Of a stretch of DNA of 44,346 bases, positions 4,888 to 11,027 are shown piece by piece (positions within the stretch are counted from its first letter, which is position 1; each line of letters begins with the position of its first letter). The stretch comes from a virus. The notes below the pieces were generated by a model. That model worked only from the letters and a program-made list of their open reading frames with translations, ran no database searches and had not been told where the DNA came from. The DNA is taken from the UHGV virus genome UHGV-0027446; one strand, 5' to 3'. The translations under genes and the position numbers were made by a program.

Positions 4888-4907
4888 AAGGCCCCAAACG
4901 GGGCCTT
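4888..4907. terminator. bidirectional rho-independent terminator (AAGGCCCC-AAAC-GGGGCCTT)
   Basis: Perfect 8-bp GC-rich stem; T-run on plus side and long A-run (U-run for minus transcripts) on the other; between convergent gene blocks. Confidence 0.6.
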
Positions 4908-5561: not shown

Positions 5562-6982
5562 TTCTTACCTCGTCTCTTCATGTAATTAAGCAACTCTTCC
5601 TGTACCGATTTCTTCTCGTCTGTGCGCGCGGCAACAACCTCATCCAGCGTGTCTTTAGCAACGATGTGGTACAGGAACACAGGGCGCTCGTGGCCTGCCT
5701 GTTTCTGGCGAACTGGGCCTATGCGCTCGACAACCTGCAAATAGTGCTCAAGGTTCCAGCCTTGCGAAATAAACGCCAGATGATGCCCGCCGTCCTGTAA
5801 ATTCAAACCATGACCGGCTGACGCAGGGTGCACGCATAAGATTTCGATTTCGCCACGGTTCCACGCTTCCATCTGTTTATTACCCTTCGCGCCTTTGGCA
5901 AACGCCTGTGCCTGCGGGAACCGCTTAAGGATGCGCTCCAGTTCGTGCTTGAACTGATAGGCCACCAGTAACGGCGCGCCCTGTAACTCCTCAACAATCG
6001 ACTCGAGCGCATCCAGTTTCGTGTCATGCACTTTCTCCCAGTCTTTGGTTGCTTCTCCGTCTGGCCCTGACACGTATACAGCGCCGGATGCAATCTGTAA
6101 ACACTTAGACGTTTTCGCTGCGGCGTTAGCCGCTTCGACTTCTCCGCTTTCAAGTTCCGCAAATAGCTTCTCCTCCATATCGATGTACGCCTGTCGCGCT
6201 TTCTTCGGCAGGTTGATTTCAACCGGTACAATAATCGGCGCTTCACAACCAAACCACTCGGCAGCGTCAATCGTGAGACTGATGTCCTTCATCTTCTGGT
6301 GAATTTCATTATCCGCACCAGGGCGGGCGTGGTATTCGCGCGCCATAGCCGACTTACCTTTCTGCACCGAGTTAAACCAGCGGTCGGTGAATGCCGTGTA
6401 TGAAGACCCGAGGCGCTCGCCGGCGTCGATAAACCAGTTCTGCCCCCACAAGTCCTTGAGGCCGTTCGGTGACGGTGTCCCTGTAAGGTTTATCAGCCGC
6501 TTAACATTTCTAAATGCTACTTTACTAAGCGCCTTTGCCCTCTTGCTCCCGCCAGAACGGCTACGGAATGATTTCAACTTCGTGCTTTCATCATTAACTA
6601 TCACGGTAAAAGGCCAGTCGTCTACGCCGTAATAGTCGATAAGCCACTCTATAACCTCATAGTTAATACAAATTACATTAGCGTCAGACTCCAGCGCCGC
6701 GATGCGGCGCTTCTCTGAACCGGTTGCATCGACGACACGCAGACACGGGAAACCCCACTTAGTTTGTTCTGCTGGCCATGTACCAGACGCAACGCGCAAC
6801 GGGGCGAGAATTAACACGCGGTCGTCGTCCGTAAGCTGCCCGTTGCGGAACAGGCGGTTTAAAGCCCACAGTACGCTGCCAGTCTTCCCGGCGCCCATGC
6901 TCGCCCAAATATTACAGCGATTGTGCCGCAACATGAACGAGGTCATGAGCTTCTGGTACTCGCGCCTTTGAAACTTACTCAT
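5558..6982 (-). CDS. SF2 (SNF2/DEAD-like) DNA helicase
   Basis: Walker A GAGKTG, DExx-like IVNDEST, C-terminal helicase domain motifs; in replication operon. Confidence 0.75.
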   Translation of the reverse strand: MSKFQRREYQKLMTSFMLRHNRCNIWASMGAGKTGSVLWALNRLFRNGQLTDDDRVLILAPLRVASGTWPAEQTKWGFPCLRVVDATGSEKRRIAALESDANVICINYEVIEWLIDYYGVDDWPFTVIVNDESTKLKSFRSRSGGSKRAKALSKVAFRNVKRLINLTGTPSPNGLKDLWGQNWFIDAGERLGSSYTAFTDRWFNSVQKGKSAMAREYHARPGADNEIHQKMKDISLTIDAAEWFGCEAPIIVPVEINLPKKARQAYIDMEEKLFAELESGEVEAANAAAKTSKCLQIASGAVYVSGPDGEATKDWEKVHDTKLDALESIVEELQGAPLLVAYQFKHELERILKRFPQAQAFAKGAKGNKQMEAWNRGEIEILCVHPASAGHGLNLQDGGHHLAFISQGWNLEHYLQVVERIGPVRQKQAGHERPVFLYHIVAKDTLDEVVAARTDEKKSVQEELLNYMKRRGKK

Positions 6983-7170
6983 TTCGCCACCAGAACTAAC
7001 TCTTTACGCCCGAACGCCGTAACGTTACCAGTTACATCTTCGATAACCAGTTTACCGTTCGACTCGACGTACACTGTATCAACGGCAACAGGGCGACGGG
7101 TCTTAACGTTGAAAATCATGTCGCCAGGTACGATGTCGCGGGCTGGTTTGCGGTCATATTCGTGTTTCAT
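6979..7170 (-). CDS. hypothetical protein
   Basis: 63-codon ORF translationally coupled (ATGA) to helicase; preceded by promoter 7204..7232. Confidence 0.4.
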   Translation of the reverse strand: MKHEYDRKPARDIVPGDMIFNVKTRRPVAVDTVYVESNGKLVIEDVTGNVTAFGRKELVLVAK

Positions 7171-7200
7171 TTCTAAATTCCTTATATTGTTGGTGTGTGA

Positions 7201-7485
7201 TTAACTATAATAGTTCGCTATTAGGTCGTCAACCTGTTTAAACGAACCAACGACAAAAACATTTGCACCACGTTTACGCATACGCTCGTGCTCTCGTAGC
7301 TGGTGCGGGTCAGGCTTCGTGTTTTCGTCTTTCTTAACCTCGACGAACCAGATGATGCCGCCGGGGAGGATTACCAACAGGTCGGGGGCGCCTCCTCTAT
7401 TTTCGTACGACAATTTGCGTACGAGGCCCCCCAGGGCCTCAAATCGGTCTTTTGCGTATTTCTGAACACGGCCCTCTTTAGTCAT
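7201..7485 (-). CDS. VRR-NUC domain nuclease
   Basis: PDLLVILPGGIIWFVEVKK PD-(D/E)XK-type core; probable start at internal ATG (MTKEGRV), track ORF starts at TTG 7500. Confidence 0.6.
   Translation of the reverse strand: MTKEGRVQKYAKDRFEALGGLVRKLSYENRGGAPDLLVILPGGIIWFVEVKKDENTKPDPHQLREHERMRKRGANVFVVGSFKQVDDLIANYYS
7204..7232 (-). promoter_or_regulatory. sigma70-type promoter, family A (TTGACG-N17-TATAGT)
   Basis: Minus-strand reading TTGACG acctaatagcgaactat TATAGT; shares spacer motif with promoters at 11734 and 14400. Confidence 0.45.
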
Positions 7486-7634
7486 GAGCGCAGAACCCAA
7501 GTAAGGAAAGCCCCACCGAGAACGGCAACGCCAACAAACTTAAAGAACAGGCCATAACAGAACATCGCGGCTATTCCAGCACCGAGTAACAGTGCAAGCA
7601 TGGTCACTATCGTCCAAAATACAAGCATTGTCAT
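7482..7634 (-). CDS. small hydrophobic membrane peptide (50 aa)
   Basis: Hand-translated MTMLVFWTIVTMLALLLGAGIAAMFCYGLFFKF...; stop overlaps VRR-NUC ATG. Confidence 0.25.
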   Translation of the reverse strand: MTMLVFWTIVTMLALLLGAGIAAMFCYGLFFKFVGVAVLGGAFLTWVLRS

Positions 7635-7720
7635 AATACACACCCCTCTCGTTTTGTATGCTCAATACCGCAGCGTGGACAGATTCGGCAGTCTTCTTCG
7701 TATAACCAGTAAATTTTCAT
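7631..7720 (-). CDS. small Cys-rich peptide (29 aa), zinc-ribbon-like
   Basis: Hand-translated MKIYWLYEEDCRICPRCGIEHTKREGCVL; ATGA overlaps on both sides. Confidence 0.2.
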   Translation of the reverse strand: MKIYWLYEEDCRICPRCGIEHTKREGCVL

Positions 7721-7848
7721 TCCAGTACCCACAAATAAATTGCTACTAGCATACCCAATACGGCGACCATCATGCCGTATTGACCCTCGTGACAGTAGAC
7801 ACCGGCGGCGAAGCCCGCCAGTACCGCGATAATCAGTTTACTTAGCAT
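7717..7848 (-). CDS. small hydrophobic membrane peptide (43 aa)
   Basis: Hand-translated MLSKLIIAVLAGFAAGVYCHEGQYGMMVAVLGMLVAIYLWVLE; start overlaps last codons of polymerase gene. Confidence 0.25.
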   Translation of the reverse strand: MLSKLIIAVLAGFAAGVYCHEGQYGMMVAVLGMLVAIYLWVLE

Positions 7849-10800
7849 AACGCTTCATCTCCGCGCCTTCCGCTACAAGAGGGAAGCCCTCTGCCCATTC
7901 CGGCAATTCGCACATCAACCGCCCAAGCTCTGCGACATTGTATTCTGGTAAATCTGGCGTCTCGCAGATAATCTCATCGTGAACATGAAGCACAATAGGA
8001 TAGCCGTTTGCCTCTACGTTCAGCAGTGCATTAGCCAGCAAATCACGGCACAGCGCCTGAGTGCAGTTTTCCACCAGTTTACCAGAGTAGGTGTACTGGA
8101 AACCCCACTGCCGTGTTAACTGGTTTTCACCCTGGTACTTGATGCGGACGTTAGTAGACACCTTCCCGTCTTCGTCTGTCTCTTTAGACACGCTTAACCC
8201 GACTCCGGGGTAAGACATAACGCGGCCCGACGGCAGCGTCATGCGCAACCACCAACCAGCGACTTTGTTGCCGTTGCTATCTGTCTCTACGTTGCGCGAA
8301 AATTTAACGCCGCGTGGCCCTGCAGTGAACTCTTTGCCAGGATTACGGATAGCCGCCATAGCCGCATCTTCAATATCCCGCCAGAACGCTACTGTTTCCG
8401 GGTGTGACTCACGCCACATGCGCTTGATAGCGTCGCAGGTACGCCACACTTTCTTATCAAGAATATACGATGGTCGGTCATCCTTTTCACCGGGCCGCGG
8501 AGGTCGCTTGGCTTCCTGAATACGCGCCCATTCATATCCGCGTGCAGTAGCGGCCCATATATGGTCGGGGAAAGTACCGTCCATTGTTTTAGCCATATCA
8601 ACAAGATTTAAGCCGAGGTTTTTAGCAAACTGAACGAAAGCGCCGACGCCGCCTGCGTAGCCGAGGCCCAATTCACAGTTATGCGCCACAAGAAAGCCAG
8701 AGTCTGACGCTATAAGAAAACGGTTACCGTCTTCCACATCAATCAGGTCGTAAACCGGCTCGCAGTAGGTTAATTTCCCGTTCAAGCTCAGCAATGCGGG
8801 CAACGGCTGCATCATATTTTCGTTGAAGCTCGGGTATTTGCCGCCTGTTACGGCAGTTTTCAGAACGGCTGACAAACCGAATGTTTCCAGGTTCGTAGTT
8901 ACCGTCTGTGTCGATTCTGTCCATTTCGAGGTTTGGGTCGTCCCAGCCTTCCAGAGTTTGAACATATCTAAGAAACGACCTTTTATCAGTCCTCCACTGG
9001 TTAAATACCGTGATGCCCCTGGCGCCATAGTTTTTATAGCCTTTGTCATTAGGTTTTGTTGTTCGCGATATCGCCGCGGACAGCCGGTTGAGCAATCGCG
9101 CTCTGTGACTGTCATCTGGCATCGCATCCTCGTAACAGAAATACTGTTTACGATATTTTTTTGTTGCTTCAAGTGCGCAGCGGTTACATTGAGTGGTTTT
9201 ACCTCTTCTAACATTGTCGTACCCGACGCGCCCCGGAATCTCTCCGCAATCACATTGAGCAAGTAGTTGTCTATGACCTTGTCGTTTTGGTAACTCGCGC
9301 AGGATAACCAGGCGTCCATACCTCTCTCCAGGGCGAGGCCCATCATATATTTGTTTGAAACGAGTTGCTTTGCCGCCTTCCAGGAATGCGTCAATATTTT
9401 GTGGTCTTCGGTCATTAGAACCCCGTCCACATTTATCACTGGTTTCCACCCCATAAGGTGCGCGCCTTTTGTATTCACCCATTTTTCACCGTTCCATACT
9501 TTATCTGTTGATGTAACCGCCATAATATCCTTAAATCCACCATCGGTCAAAACTTGGGTATGGCGGTGAAGACAGGCCTTGCCAATCTGGCGCAGGTCAC
9601 TACGGCTTTCGAGAATGTAATCGGGGTCCATTCCGAACATCTTACCCGCAGTTACACAGTAAATATCCAGTCCCGCACGGAAAGTATCGAGAGCGGTTTC
9701 TTCTCCCGCCAGCCATGCCAACCCGCGTCCTTCAACGTTAGAGTAATCGGCGACTACAAACTTATGTCCGGCTTCCGGTATGATGCAGCTACGCACCGTC
9801 GATGCCGTTAGTTTGGCCACATCAAAACGGCGATGCGCACGGCCTTTAAACAACAGGTCGATTCCGTAGGACAATGGGTGTGTTACTCGCCACCAGTCCT
9901 TCTCTGACATCCAGTCATAGCGTACTTTCTTCTTTTTATTCTTCGGGTCGTCGTGATAGTACCCGCGCGCCAGGTTCTGCGGCTGAAAGCCTTTGCCCGC
10001 AAATCGTAATGTACGCTTCGCTCCGCCATACTGGATGCAACCACGACGGCGGTCGTCCGACGAGCGGCCCAACAGCAGCGGGTTATATTTCGTTGACGCG
10101 GTAGACGCGGCTCCGAGGCGCATTTCGATAATCATGCGGGCGTCGTCCGGTAAATCATCATCCGCCAACAAGTCATTCAGCGTTGACTTCTGCGCGTTGT
10201 GGATGCGGTGCGCGGGTGCGAGTTCACGCAGAATCGGCAGAAAGTCTTTACCAGTAAGCGAGCCGCCGTATTTTCGTTGGGCTTCTTCCTGTAACTGCGC
10301 TTTGTGTTTCTCCACGGCTTCAATCGCGGCTTCTGCCAGCGCGACGTCTACCTTAAACCCTCGGTCATTGATTAACTGGTCCAGCTCAAGTACACGGTCC
10401 TCGAACTCTGAGTTACCCCACCGCGGCAGCTTATGGAAGACTTCACGCATCGCAGTGATGTCGCTCACGGCGTACTTGATGAACAGCGCCCACTCGTCCG
10501 GGTGTGTTTCGGCGGTGTAGCGGCGGATTTTGTAGTTCTTCGGCGTAGGTTTAGAAAAACGCTGAATCAGCGCCTTGCCGCGTTTGTCTTTTGCGTTGTC
10601 TGCGGACACGCCCAACACTTCGCACAAAGCATCAAGTGAACCCGGCAGCGCGTGACGAAACGCCCAAATCATCGTATCAATGGTGTTGTTTACCGGAATA
10701 TCAAAACCCCAGCAGTGTTTCATGATGAGCCTGTCGAACATTGAACCGTTGTGCCACACCATCTTGATACGGCTGTTCGGTTTAACCAGACGGCGTAGCG

Positions 10801-10987
10801 CGCGGTGCAAATCGCCAGGCATGTCGCTGCCGTCTGTGCAGTCCCATACCTGTACGGGCTCGTCGTCAAAAGCATAAGTACAGATGAGCACTTCGGTTGA
10901 CGGGTGTTCGGCGTAAGCGTAGGAACCGACTTTCTTTAAATCGACTCCGGAGAATGTTTCAAAGTCTAAGTAGAGTAATTCTGGCAT
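7838..10987 (-). CDS. family-A DNA polymerase with 3'-5' exonuclease domain, interrupted by an intein
   Basis: Exo I motif YLDFETFS; motif A VVADYSNVEGR; motif B split by a 299-codon insertion; likely start at ATG (MPELLYLDFE), track ORF extends to TTG at 11017. Confidence 0.85.
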   Translation of the reverse strand: MPELLYLDFETFSGVDLKKVGSYAYAEHPSTEVLICTYAFDDEPVQVWDCTDGSDMPGDLHRALRRLVKPNSRIKMVWHNGSMFDRLIMKHCWGFDIPVNNTIDTMIWAFRHALPGSLDALCEVLGVSADNAKDKRGKALIQRFSKPTPKNYKIRRYTAETHPDEWALFIKYAVSDITAMREVFHKLPRWGNSEFEDRVLELDQLINDRGFKVDVALAEAAIEAVEKHKAQLQEEAQRKYGGSLTGKDFLPILRELAPAHRIHNAQKSTLNDLLADDDLPDDARMIIEMRLGAASTASTKYNPLLLGRSSDDRRRGCIQYGGAKRTLRFAGKGFQPQNLARGYYHDDPKNKKKKVRYDWMSEKDWWRVTHPLSYGIDLLFKGRAHRRFDVAKLTASTVRSCIIPEAGHKFVVADYSNVEGRGLAWLAGEETALDTFRAGLDIYCVTAGKMFGMDPDYILESRSDLRQIGKACLHRHTQVLTDGGFKDIMAVTSTDKVWNGEKWVNTKGAHLMGWKPVINVDGVLMTEDHKILTHSWKAAKQLVSNKYMMGLALERGMDAWLSCASYQNDKVIDNYLLNVIAERFRGASGTTMLEEVKPLNVTAAHLKQQKNIVNSISVTRMRCQMTVTERDCSTGCPRRYREQQNLMTKAIKTMAPGASRYLTSGGLIKGRFLDMFKLWKAGTTQTSKWTESTQTVTTNLETFGLSAVLKTAVTGGKYPSFNENMMQPLPALLSLNGKLTYCEPVYDLIDVEDGNRFLIASDSGFLVAHNCELGLGYAGGVGAFVQFAKNLGLNLVDMAKTMDGTFPDHIWAATARGYEWARIQEAKRPPRPGEKDDRPSYILDKKVWRTCDAIKRMWRESHPETVAFWRDIEDAAMAAIRNPGKEFTAGPRGVKFSRNVETDSNGNKVAGWWLRMTLPSGRVMSYPGVGLSVSKETDEDGKVSTNVRIKYQGENQLTRQWGFQYTYSGKLVENCTQALCRDLLANALLNVEANGYPIVLHVHDEIICETPDLPEYNVAELGRLMCELPEWAEGFPLVAEGAEMKRYAK
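8678..9574 (-). mobile_element. intein inserted in polymerase motif B
   Basis: Starts CLHRHTQVLTDGG (block A), has LMTEDHKILT (block B), ends YDLIDVEDGNRFLIASDSGFLVAHN with Cys at +1; excision restores RQIGKA-CELGLGYAGG. Confidence 0.7.
8739..9482 (-). CDS. HNH homing endonuclease, encoded in an alternative frame within the intein
   Basis: 247-codon ORF, same strand as polymerase but a different frame; YGRLVIL, QCDCGEIPGRVGYDNVRRGKTTQCNRC, KGYKNYGARGITVFNQW, LEMDRIDTDGNYEPGNIRFVSRSENCRNRR. Confidence 0.55.
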   Translation of the reverse strand: MGEYKRRAPYGVETSDKCGRGSNDRRPQNIDAFLEGGKATRFKQIYDGPRPGERYGRLVILRELPKRQGHRQLLAQCDCGEIPGRVGYDNVRRGKTTQCNRCALEATKKYRKQYFCYEDAMPDDSHRARLLNRLSAAISRTTKPNDKGYKNYGARGITVFNQWRTDKRSFLRYVQTLEGWDDPNLEMDRIDTDGNYEPGNIRFVSRSENCRNRRQIPELQRKYDAAVARIAELEREINLLRAGLRPD

Positions 10988-11007
10988 GGTATTTCGACCC
11001 TTAGTAA

Positions 11008-11027
11008 AAAGGCCCAATGAAGGGCCT
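11008..11027 (-). terminator. intercistronic hairpin / attenuator between SSB-like gene and polymerase gene
   Basis: AAGGCCC-loop-GGGCCTT followed on the minus-strand transcript by UUUUUACU; lies in the 30-nt gap just upstream of the polymerase RBS. Confidence 0.45.

Follow-up and report, generated by a model that had tools for sequence, protein, structure and literature searches.

Three overlapping, conserved microprotein genes between the DNA polymerase and VRR-NUC genes of a Kagunavirus genome

Three small genes lie in a row between the family A DNA polymerase gene and the VRR-NUC nuclease gene on the minus strand of virus genome UHGV-0027446. These open reading frames (ORF1, ORF2 and ORF3) are under purifying selection, behave as modules in related phages and keep the overlaps between start and stop codons that link them to each other and to their neighbors. 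Comparison of homologous copies makes it nearly certain that all three are genuine protein-coding genes. ORF1 and ORF3 are predicted to encode membrane peptides and ORF2 a Cys-rich peptide that may bind zinc. Taken as a whole, this account of the genes and of their anatomy is likely to be correct, specific roles being excluded from that judgment.

The window, that is, the whole stretch of 44,346 nucleotides that was analyzed, comes from an Escherichia coli phage of the genus Kagunavirus, subfamily Guernseyvirinae. The region under study shares 93% identity with Escherichia phage K1ind1. By megablast it matches 362 phage records, nearly all from Kagunavirus or from Jersey-like phages of Salmonella in the same subfamily.

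The coordinates of the ORFs and of the neighboring features are collected in Table 1. The preliminary description had placed three ORFs, translated by hand, in positions 7482-7848, and they were said to encode a hydrophobic, a Cys-rich and a second hydrophobic peptide of 43, 29 and 50 aa. When the minus strand from 7300 to 8000 was re-read and ORFs of at least 20 aa were listed, the hand translation was reproduced exactly; all three ORFs were recovered at this low length cutoff with the same lengths and sequences, and none is interrupted by a stop codon. Together they fill the space from the polymerase stop codon (TAA, 7840..7838 on the minus strand) to the VRR-NUC start codon (ATG, 7485). The further claim of an unbroken series of ATGA overlaps anchored at both ends needs one correction. 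ATGA overlaps are present at the ORF1/ORF2, ORF2/ORF3 and ORF3/VRR-NUC junctions, but the polymerase/ORF1 junction is of another kind: the ATG of ORF1 lies 11 nt within the polymerase gene (ATGCTAAGTAA), whose last 11 nt overlap the start of ORF1. In composition-preserving shuffles of these 367 nt, a gap-filling chain of ATG-initiated ORFs, each of at least 20 aa, appeared in 41 of 20,000 cases under generous rules. The evolutionary evidence for coding, described below, is much stronger than this test.

Table 1. Features of the replication operon around the three ORFs, with positions numbered along the window.
Feature	Coordinates	Strand	Description	Basis
Family A DNA polymerase gene with intein	7838..11017	minus		ORF listing; Pfam DNA_pol_A and exonuclease domains
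ORF1	7717..7848 (ATG 7848 to TGA 7717)	minus	43 aa, MLSKLIIAVLAGFAAGVYCHEGQYGMMVAVLGMLVAIYLWVLE	Re-translation
ORF2	7631..7720 (ATG 7720 to TGA 7631)	minus	29 aa, MKIYWLYEEDCRICPRCGIEHTKREGCVL	Re-translation
ORF3	7482..7634 (ATG 7634 to TGA 7482)	minus	50 aa, MTMLVFWTIVTMLALLLGAGIAAMFCYGLFFKFVGVAVLGGAFLTWVLRS	Re-translation
VRR-NUC nuclease gene	7201..7485	minus	94 aa	phrog_93 endonuclease, E=5e-33; phrog_5702 Holliday junction resolvase
63-aa gene	6979..7170	minus	63 aa, function not assigned	ORF listing; phrog_4879, E=3e-46
Terminator-like hairpin, strong	4888..4907	minus	8-bp stem, 6 G-C pairs, then T-run	

The genes belong to a minus-strand replication and recombination operon with the order SSB-like gene (Gp2.5-like, phrog_112), polymerase, ORF1, ORF2, ORF3, VRR-NUC, the 63-aa gene, SNF2-type helicase and a primase/Toprim-like gene (phrog_849). 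Relatives annotate the polymerase gene as a DNA polymerase or an intein-containing precursor; the tabulated coordinates are those of the longest ORF, which begins with TTG; translation probably starts instead from the ATG near 10987. The nuclease gene matches the Pfam VRR_NUC model weakly, below the curated cutoff, and in relatives is labeled VRR-NUC, endonuclease or Holliday junction resolvase. Farther along the operon, the stop codon of the 63-aa gene overlaps the start of the SNF2-type helicase gene (6982) as ATGA. The hairpin at 4907..4888 probably ends the operon that contains the ORF chain.

The coding status of the ORFs was examined in 79 IMG/VR loci, which were fetched with the VRR-NUC protein as the query and in which the peptides were located by tblastn. 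The copies recovered numbered 47 for ORF1, 54 for ORF2 and 26 for ORF3. The length was 132 nt in every copy of ORF1, 153 nt in every copy of ORF3 and either 90 or 99 nt in ORF2. All of the copies end in TGA and lack internal stop codons, and within a length class there are no indels. Pooled Nei-Gojobori dN/dS ratios in the proposed frames are 0.195 for ORF1, 0.082 for ORF2 and 0.187 for ORF3, as measured over a shallow tree of homologues that are all at least about 75% identical and among which metagenomic singletons may contain sequencing errors. In contrast, the shifted frames give ratios of 0.76-2.8. Summed nucleotide diversities at codon positions 1, 2 and 3 are 2.9, 1.3 and 7.2 for ORF1, 1.0, 1.0 and 7.3 for ORF2, and 4.8, 1.9 and 10.6 for ORF3, so that diversity at the third position is 2.2 to 7 times that at the other two. 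For ORF2, pS is 0.40 and pN is 0.046. Thus, purifying selection in frame is accompanied in all three ORFs by conservation of frame and length.

The intein linker of the polymerase gene in the same window provides an internal comparison. It is open in nine of nine copies, yet its dN/dS in the polymerase frame is 0.86. The ORFs of the chain, at 0.08-0.19, therefore differ from reading frames that are kept open for read-through only. Additionally, an ORF in an alternative frame (7665..7540, 41 aa, starting with TTG) is open in many relatives; it was rejected as non-coding, since the dN/dS in shifted frames exceeds 1. The preliminary description had argued from the chain of overlaps that the ORFs are translated, and this argument is strengthened by purifying selection in the proposed frames, by conservation and by the retention of the overlaps in relatives, all of which are comparisons of sequence. 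The conservation in related phages is extensive, each ORF being present in a hundred or several hundred GenBank phage records (see below).

At the gene level, the three ORFs are already known as hypothetical proteins in GenBank relatives, and they belong to PHROG families without an assigned function, phrog_10404 (ORF1), phrog_38225 (ORF2) and phrog_14925 (ORF3). In phages Snoke (MK931441; CPT_Snoke_041, 040 and 039) and Bas71 (PQ850615; Bas71_0041, 0040 and 0039), three hypothetical CDS are found at the same relative coordinates. The overlaps in Bas71 are identical to those of the window, whereas ORF3 of Snoke is annotated as a shorter protein of 39 aa from a later start. Phage vB_EcoS-22664BS2 has an ORF1 and an ORF2 that are 100% identical to those of the window. 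Many other matched records list 'hypothetical protein (x3)' at this place, and older records, K1ind1 among them, annotate nothing in the gap. The ORFs were missing only from the ORF track of the preliminary description; many GenBank relatives annotate all three. A literature search found no paper on the function of ORF1-3, and the passages searched of the one Kagunavirus transcriptome paper found, which uses 57 annotated genes, contain nothing on them (PMC12645636).

The junction between the polymerase and VRR-NUC genes acts as a modular slot that accommodates small cargo genes. In 52 Guernseyvirinae loci from two closely related genera, the gap between the two genes ranges from 86 to 1125 nt. 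The commonest single architecture is that of the window, ORF1-ORF2-ORF3 (TMa43-Zn29-TMb50). Other loci contain only ORF1 and ORF2, with an ORF2 of either 29 or 32 aa, the longer form ending in DEYA and overlapping the VRR-NUC gene by 14 nt. In a further variant, an in-frame fusion of 33-36 aa (MLSKLI+IYYFREEDCRICPRCG...) occurs alone or is followed by ORF3; the lone MLSKLI-Zn fusion, with a gap of 86 nt, is the typical Jerseyvirus arrangement. Some loci also carry a 64-aa gene (phrog_25645), short hydrophobic peptides (23-25 aa) or HNH endonuclease genes (165-231 aa). Despite this variety, the start/stop overlaps persist irrespective of the cargo, also when modules are added or removed. Over the 52 loci, the offset at the junctions is -4 in 116 cases, -11 in 52 (the junction of the polymerase with the first gene) and -14 in 15, with only a few others.

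The three modules differ in how widely they are distributed. In tblastn searches of GenBank phages, about 447 Guernseyvirinae records contain ORF2, compared with 224 for ORF1 and 121 for ORF3. Because the Guernsey-type VRR-NUC is present at 80% identity or more in 442 GenBank records, ORF2 occurs roughly once per Kagunavirus or Jerseyvirus genome and is the conserved core of the slot. Moreover, ORF2 is seen alone, with only ORF1 or with only ORF3 in related loci, and ORF1 and ORF3 are optional genes that are gained or lost independently of each other. Annotation of ORF2 is uneven: in an even sample of the tblastn ranking, 23 of the 49 annotated records have no feature over it. In Serratia phage Tsm2, the most divergent member of the Guernseyvirinae checked, ORF2 is absent and an unrelated 117-aa gene occupies the slot, so that this replication module can exist without ORF2. 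More distant phages with the same polymerase/VRR-NUC synteny lack it too.

The peptide encoded by ORF2 is hydrophilic (GRAVY -0.39) and taken to be soluble, and its residues 1-28 match positions 5-32 of the 36 in phrog_38225 (E=2.7e-21). Its Cys-rich character, one part of the preliminary description, is borne out by the 54 copies: C14 and C27 are present in all 54, C17 in 53, H21 in 52 and the semi-conserved C11 in 48, and no copy lacks two of these five residues. The conserved pattern is CX2CX3HX5C (C14-x2-C17-x3-H21-x5-C27) around a CPRCG knuckle. This pattern suggests that ORF2 binds zinc, likely a single ion, which is somewhat more probable than the opposite. An AlphaFold2 model of the 36-aa Jersey-type form, built from a four-row alignment, has a pLDDT of 55 and is uninformative.

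Comparison with known zinc-binding families places the similarity at the level of the motif. The Cys2-His-Cys set of ORF2 spans the same 14 residues as that of the retroviral-type zf-CCHC (PF00098, CX2CX4HX4C). However, the spacing within it is CX2CX3HX5C, and PF00098 does not match at E values up to 1, so that ORF2 falls outside this family. Likewise, ORF2 shares a CPxCG knuckle with ribbons of the zinc_ribbon_2/DZR type, but these possess two CxxC knuckles while ORF2 has one CPxCG together with single Cys and His residues. With one knuckle and no Pfam match, it is not a member of the zinc ribbons, and its likeness to zinc-ribbon repeat proteins is confined to the knuckle. No Pfam zinc-finger model matches ORF2 at E <0.2, and the similarity to zinc ribbons in the PDB is of knuckle level (E >0.2). 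Weak matches outside the family are all to CPxCG knuckles, in Cox5B, RNA polymerase subunit M, S27ae and repeated zinc-ribbon membrane proteins. When 1.84 billion representatives were searched with a profile, only the family of ORF2 itself, repeat proteins sharing CPxCG and one low-complexity repeat protein were retrieved, and a protein search with a tandem-duplicated query returned only near-identical copies and frameshift-fused assembly artefacts.

The best guess from these features is that ORF2 is a small factor that binds either a nucleic acid or another protein. A narrower proposal is that it represents a previously unrecognized zinc-knuckle microprotein of 29-36 aa that would act as a partner of the adjacent VRR-NUC or polymerase, such as a subunit that binds DNA or has a regulatory part; this is unlikely on the current evidence. 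In distant phages, unrelated small Cys/His peptides are found directly upstream of VRR-NUC, an anecdotal observation. One of these, a 49-aa peptide, passes the Pfam zf-CCHC model (23.2 bits against a cutoff of 20.8; locus L065), and two other loci (L071 and L072) have a CxxC...H...C peptide in this position. They hint toward a partner role for ORF2.

The hydrophobic character given to ORF1 and ORF3 in the preliminary description also held. In ORF1, with a GRAVY of 1.48 and a central polar dip, the polar loop CHEGQY is flanked by two hydrophobic segments, each about 15-17 residues long; the peptide matches phrog_10404 over its full length (residues 1-43 to positions 1-43 of 43, E=2.5e-31). ORF3 is hydrophobic across all 50 residues (GRAVY 1.77), is rich in small-xxx-small motifs of G and A, and matches positions 1-50 of the 50 in phrog_14925 with its residues 1-50 (E=5.1e-33). 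AlphaFold2 predicts an all-helical structure for residues 2-49 of ORF3 (pLDDT 91), which is drawn as one helix of 48 residues and not as a hairpin. Both peptides are thus predicted to have hydrophobic helical segments of bilayer-spanning length, as in integral membrane microproteins, and they very probably insert into the membrane, presumably the inner one. The two are not detectably related to each other in sequence. Paralogy was rejected, since BLASTP finds no alignment between them.

Database matches to ORF1 and ORF3 are all at least about 75% identical, are unnamed or called 'hypothetical', and come from contigs of phage size (40-45 kb) or from shorter fragments; none lies outside the subfamily, and there are no distant homologues. 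Searches of Pfam, NCBIfam and PDB sequences with all three peptides gave nothing significant, nor did any of them match the PADLOC anti-phage defence families at E values up to 1. Weak matches to EMC6, PufX and 3-hydroxyanthranilate dioxygenase were rejected as hydrophobic or knuckle noise. At least one GenBank record, that of phage JSSK01, has a feature named '3-hydroxyanthranilate 3,4-dioxygenase' adjoining ORF1, a label that may reflect the same spurious match applied to ORF2.

Because the distribution of ORF1 and ORF3 is patchy and independent, an accessory role in host interaction is suggested, and such a role is most likely for them in preference to one in core replication. Small phage inner-membrane proteins with accessory roles include the superinfection-exclusion proteins T4 Imm and HK97 gp15 as well as phi29 p1 and p16.7. 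Like ORF1 and ORF3, for which the membrane location is predicted, these proteins are small, expressed with early or middle genes and patchy among close relatives. However, in PHROGs, Pfam and NCBIfam they have no sequence similarity to ORF1-3. Any one specific accessory role, for example in excluding superinfection or in modulating a membrane protein of the host, is possible but doubtful.

Two other roles for the hydrophobic peptides were considered. In the first, the three peptides would work as one unit, in which the zinc peptide is held at the membrane by its two hydrophobic partners and tethers the replication or recombination machinery, in the manner of the small phi29 membrane proteins p1 and p16.7. 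The genes are adjacent and apparently co-translated inside a replication operon, next to the polymerase, and more of the related loci have ORF1-ORF2-ORF3 than any other one architecture, which speaks for this proposal. The modules nevertheless occur independently, with ORF2 alone or with either partner and with records numbering about 447, 224 and 121; moreover, ORF1 and ORF3 are dissimilar, and no library searched reveals homology to the phi29 proteins. A joint function of the three peptides is improbable. In the second, ORF1, ORF3 or both would be lysis-related or toxin-like proteins that permeabilize the membrane, such as holins, antiholins or type I toxin-like peptides. This would suit two very small, highly hydrophobic peptides rich in Gly/Ala small-xxx-small motifs, but it is improbable as well: they are encoded in the replication operon and not with the lysis genes, at least half of the relatives do without them, and PHROGs, Pfam and NCBIfam connect them with neither holins nor toxins. 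An accessory role in host interaction remains the preferred reading for ORF1 and ORF3.

The arrangement of the genes also bears on how they might be translated. Upstream of ORF1, GGAG is positioned 10 nt before the ATG (-6.6 kcal/mol against the anti-SD), and ORF3 is preceded by an SD-like GAGGGG (-8.6 kcal/mol). The SDs of ORF2 (-3.7 kcal/mol) and VRR-NUC (-3.1 kcal/mol) are weak. Since each start overlaps the preceding stop, ORF1-3 are probably translated by termination-reinitiation. The overlap geometry expected of coupled genes is present in the chain and is conserved in the 52 loci; likewise, many phage and bacterial operons contain coupled genes that overlap as ATGA or TGATG, and the chain has four consecutive start/stop overlaps. 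The weak SDs before two of the starts also fit what is seen in coupled operons elsewhere, the coupling proposed here being deduced from geometry. Because these SDs are weak, expression of ORF2 and VRR-NUC is probably dependent on coupling. In the proposed mechanism, ribosomes that finish the polymerase, and then each ORF in turn, would reinitiate at the overlapping AUG, and translation of ORF1 and ORF3 would be helped also by their reasonable SDs. ORF2 would then fold around one zinc ion and bind nucleic acid or protein, while ORF1 and ORF3 would insert as helical peptides in the inner membrane and play an accessory part.

The same features could be explained if the ORFs were kept open only to relay ribosomes from the polymerase to the weakly initiating VRR-NUC, the peptides themselves being functionless. 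The overlaps are indeed conserved whatever the cargo, SD pairing is weak before ORF2 as well as VRR-NUC, and in some relatives a single ORF of 33-36 aa bridges the gap. A relay, however, needs nothing more than an open frame, and the dN/dS ratios of ORF1-3 are far from that of the intein linker, which is constrained in this way. In addition, some related phages (such as L078 and L080) have their VRR-NUC gene 2-12 nt after the polymerase gene with no ORF between them. It is thus very improbable that relaying ribosomes is all that the ORFs do, and coupled translation of functional peptides is favored. It is more improbable still that the 59-nt core of ORF2 (7699..7641) is a cis-acting DNA or RNA element in which the ORF is incidental: this piece is the sole blastn-matched part in many Jerseyvirus records, within unannotated sequence, but substitutions in ORF2 are concentrated at third positions, the signature of protein constraint, its high synonymous divergence speaks against a nucleic-acid element, and Rfam gives no match at E values up to 1 anywhere in positions 6500-8500. 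A hidden RNA element or an internal promoter or terminator was rejected: Rfam gives no match, and hits resembling promoters or terminators, from the hairpin at 4888-4907 to 11.7 kb, are no commoner than in shuffled sequences.

In conclusion, the biology of the chain is ordinary and already catalogued, and it resembles the usual coupled operons of phages. As a discovery it carries little weight because the genes have been deposited and clustered in PHROGs. What is mildly new is the near one-to-one conservation of ORF2 together with its frequent lack of annotation, the modularity of the slot and, anecdotally, the Cys/His micro-peptides upstream of VRR-NUC in distant phages. About 450 phage genomes, many of them candidates for phage therapy against Salmonella and E. 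coli, share a conserved gene of 29-36 aa that roughly half of the sampled annotated records overlook. ORF2 is a reasonable and cheap target for knockout or zinc-binding work. Overall, sequence comparison shows cleanly that selection acts on all three microproteins, and the junction between polymerase and VRR-NUC emerges as a modular slot in which insertions of small cargo genes and of homing endonucleases have left the start/stop overlaps intact.

The family A DNA polymerase gene of this Kagunavirus genome is interrupted by an insert whose first residues are CLHRHTQ and last VAHN|C (polymerase residues 482-780), and 219 records possess it. The label 'intein-containing DNA polymerase precursor' is already used in many relatives. 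A second gene, for an HNH endonuclease, lies within the intein in a frame other than that of the polymerase. Based on nine homologous copies, the two intein termini are under constraint in the polymerase frame, with dN/dS of 0.12 and 0. For the 750 nt in between, in contrast, dN/dS is 0.15 in the HNH frame, a sign of constraint, versus a nearly neutral 0.86 in the polymerase frame. Despite this near neutrality, the polymerase frame is stop-free throughout the 299 codons. Because the ends are constrained in one frame and the middle in the other, with no stop codon, the insert looks, from its sequence, like a mini-intein whose linker would be an out-of-frame reading of a homing-endonuclease gene. 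The nested gene is comparable to the 'hidden out-of-frame HNH' described for a phage methylase insertion (PMC11855218). Among the 25 records listed, an endonuclease is annotated over this region only in VT223; the other 24 carry a polymerase-type or other label alone, or none.

Features of the window, of related and more distant IMG/VR loci (L numbers) and of public-assembly proteins matched in homolog searches for ORF2 (P numbers)
Feature	Location	Strand	Details
Intein in polymerase	window 8678-9574	minus	299 aa
Nested HNH endonuclease gene	window 8739-9482	minus	247 aa; phrog_374, E=2.5e-47
Alternative-frame ORF across ORF2/ORF3 boundary	window 7540-7665	minus	41 aa; TTG start
Gene between VRR-NUC and SNF2 helicase	window 6979-7170	minus	63 aa; phrog_4879, E=3e-46; function not assigned
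HNH gene at junction	L014 1453-2148
HNH gene at junction	L025 1765-2280
Homing-endonuclease insertion	L039/L043, between ORF2 and VRR-NUC
Optional module after ORF2	L008 2161-2355; L027 2310-2504; similar loci		63-64 aa
zf-CCHC peptide	L065 2334-2483		49 aa; Pfam zf-CCHC, 23.2 bits (passes cut-off of 20.8)
CxxC...H...C peptide	L071/L072 2340-2495		51 aa
Small hydrophobic peptides in place of Cys/His peptide	L077 728-1023		31 and 67 aa
'Fusion' proteins	P0001-P0006, P0008, P0010, P0011, P0013

Free-standing homing-endonuclease genes have an insertion hotspot at the junction between the polymerase and VRR-NUC nuclease genes, a junction occupied in the window by the small genes ORF1, ORF2 and ORF3. 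The HNH genes found there encode 165-231 aa. GenBank carriers of such insertions include the phages Sciku, Bas73 and Bas74, the last two with the gene labelled 'endonuclease VII'. Insertion occurs at two points, polymerase/ORF1 or ORF2/VRR-NUC, and the starts and stops of the endonuclease genes mostly still overlap or abut those of their neighbours.

In addition, some relatives possess an extra module (MSNKPFSKKLAALVDMPEWEF...CAGCTHKG...) joined after the Cys-rich ORF2 by ATGA overlaps. It belongs to a family without assigned function (phrog_25645, E=8e-41), and its resemblance to the A2L zinc ribbon is weak, falling under the Pfam cut-off. In more distant phages, with VRR-NUC at 38-46% identity, the gene directly upstream of VRR-NUC sometimes encodes an unrelated Cys/His micro-peptide, an anecdotal observation.

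Both the window and many relatives keep an alternative frame open across the boundary between ORF2 and ORF3. It was rejected as a fourth gene because dN/dS exceeds 1 in the shifted frames, and on these substitution patterns it is judged a side effect of the real genes.

Public assemblies, from metagenomes and from read archives, also contain 68-79 aa 'fusions' of ORF1 with ORF2 or of ORF2 with ORF3, in which the junction residues are scrambled. They have the look of assembly artefacts, caused by frameshifting indels in overlapping tiny genes, and not of real fusion proteins. In Escherichia phage JSSK01 (OQ442786.1) a '3-hydroxyanthranilate 3,4-dioxygenase' feature adjoins the ORF1 homolog. This may be a spurious name on an ORF2 homolog, since the PDB search with ORF2 gives the same non-significant knuckle match (1yfu, E about 0.4).

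Downstream of VRR-NUC, the stop of the 63-aa gene and the start of the SNF2 helicase gene share an ATGA overlap, which extends the probably coupled chain downstream.
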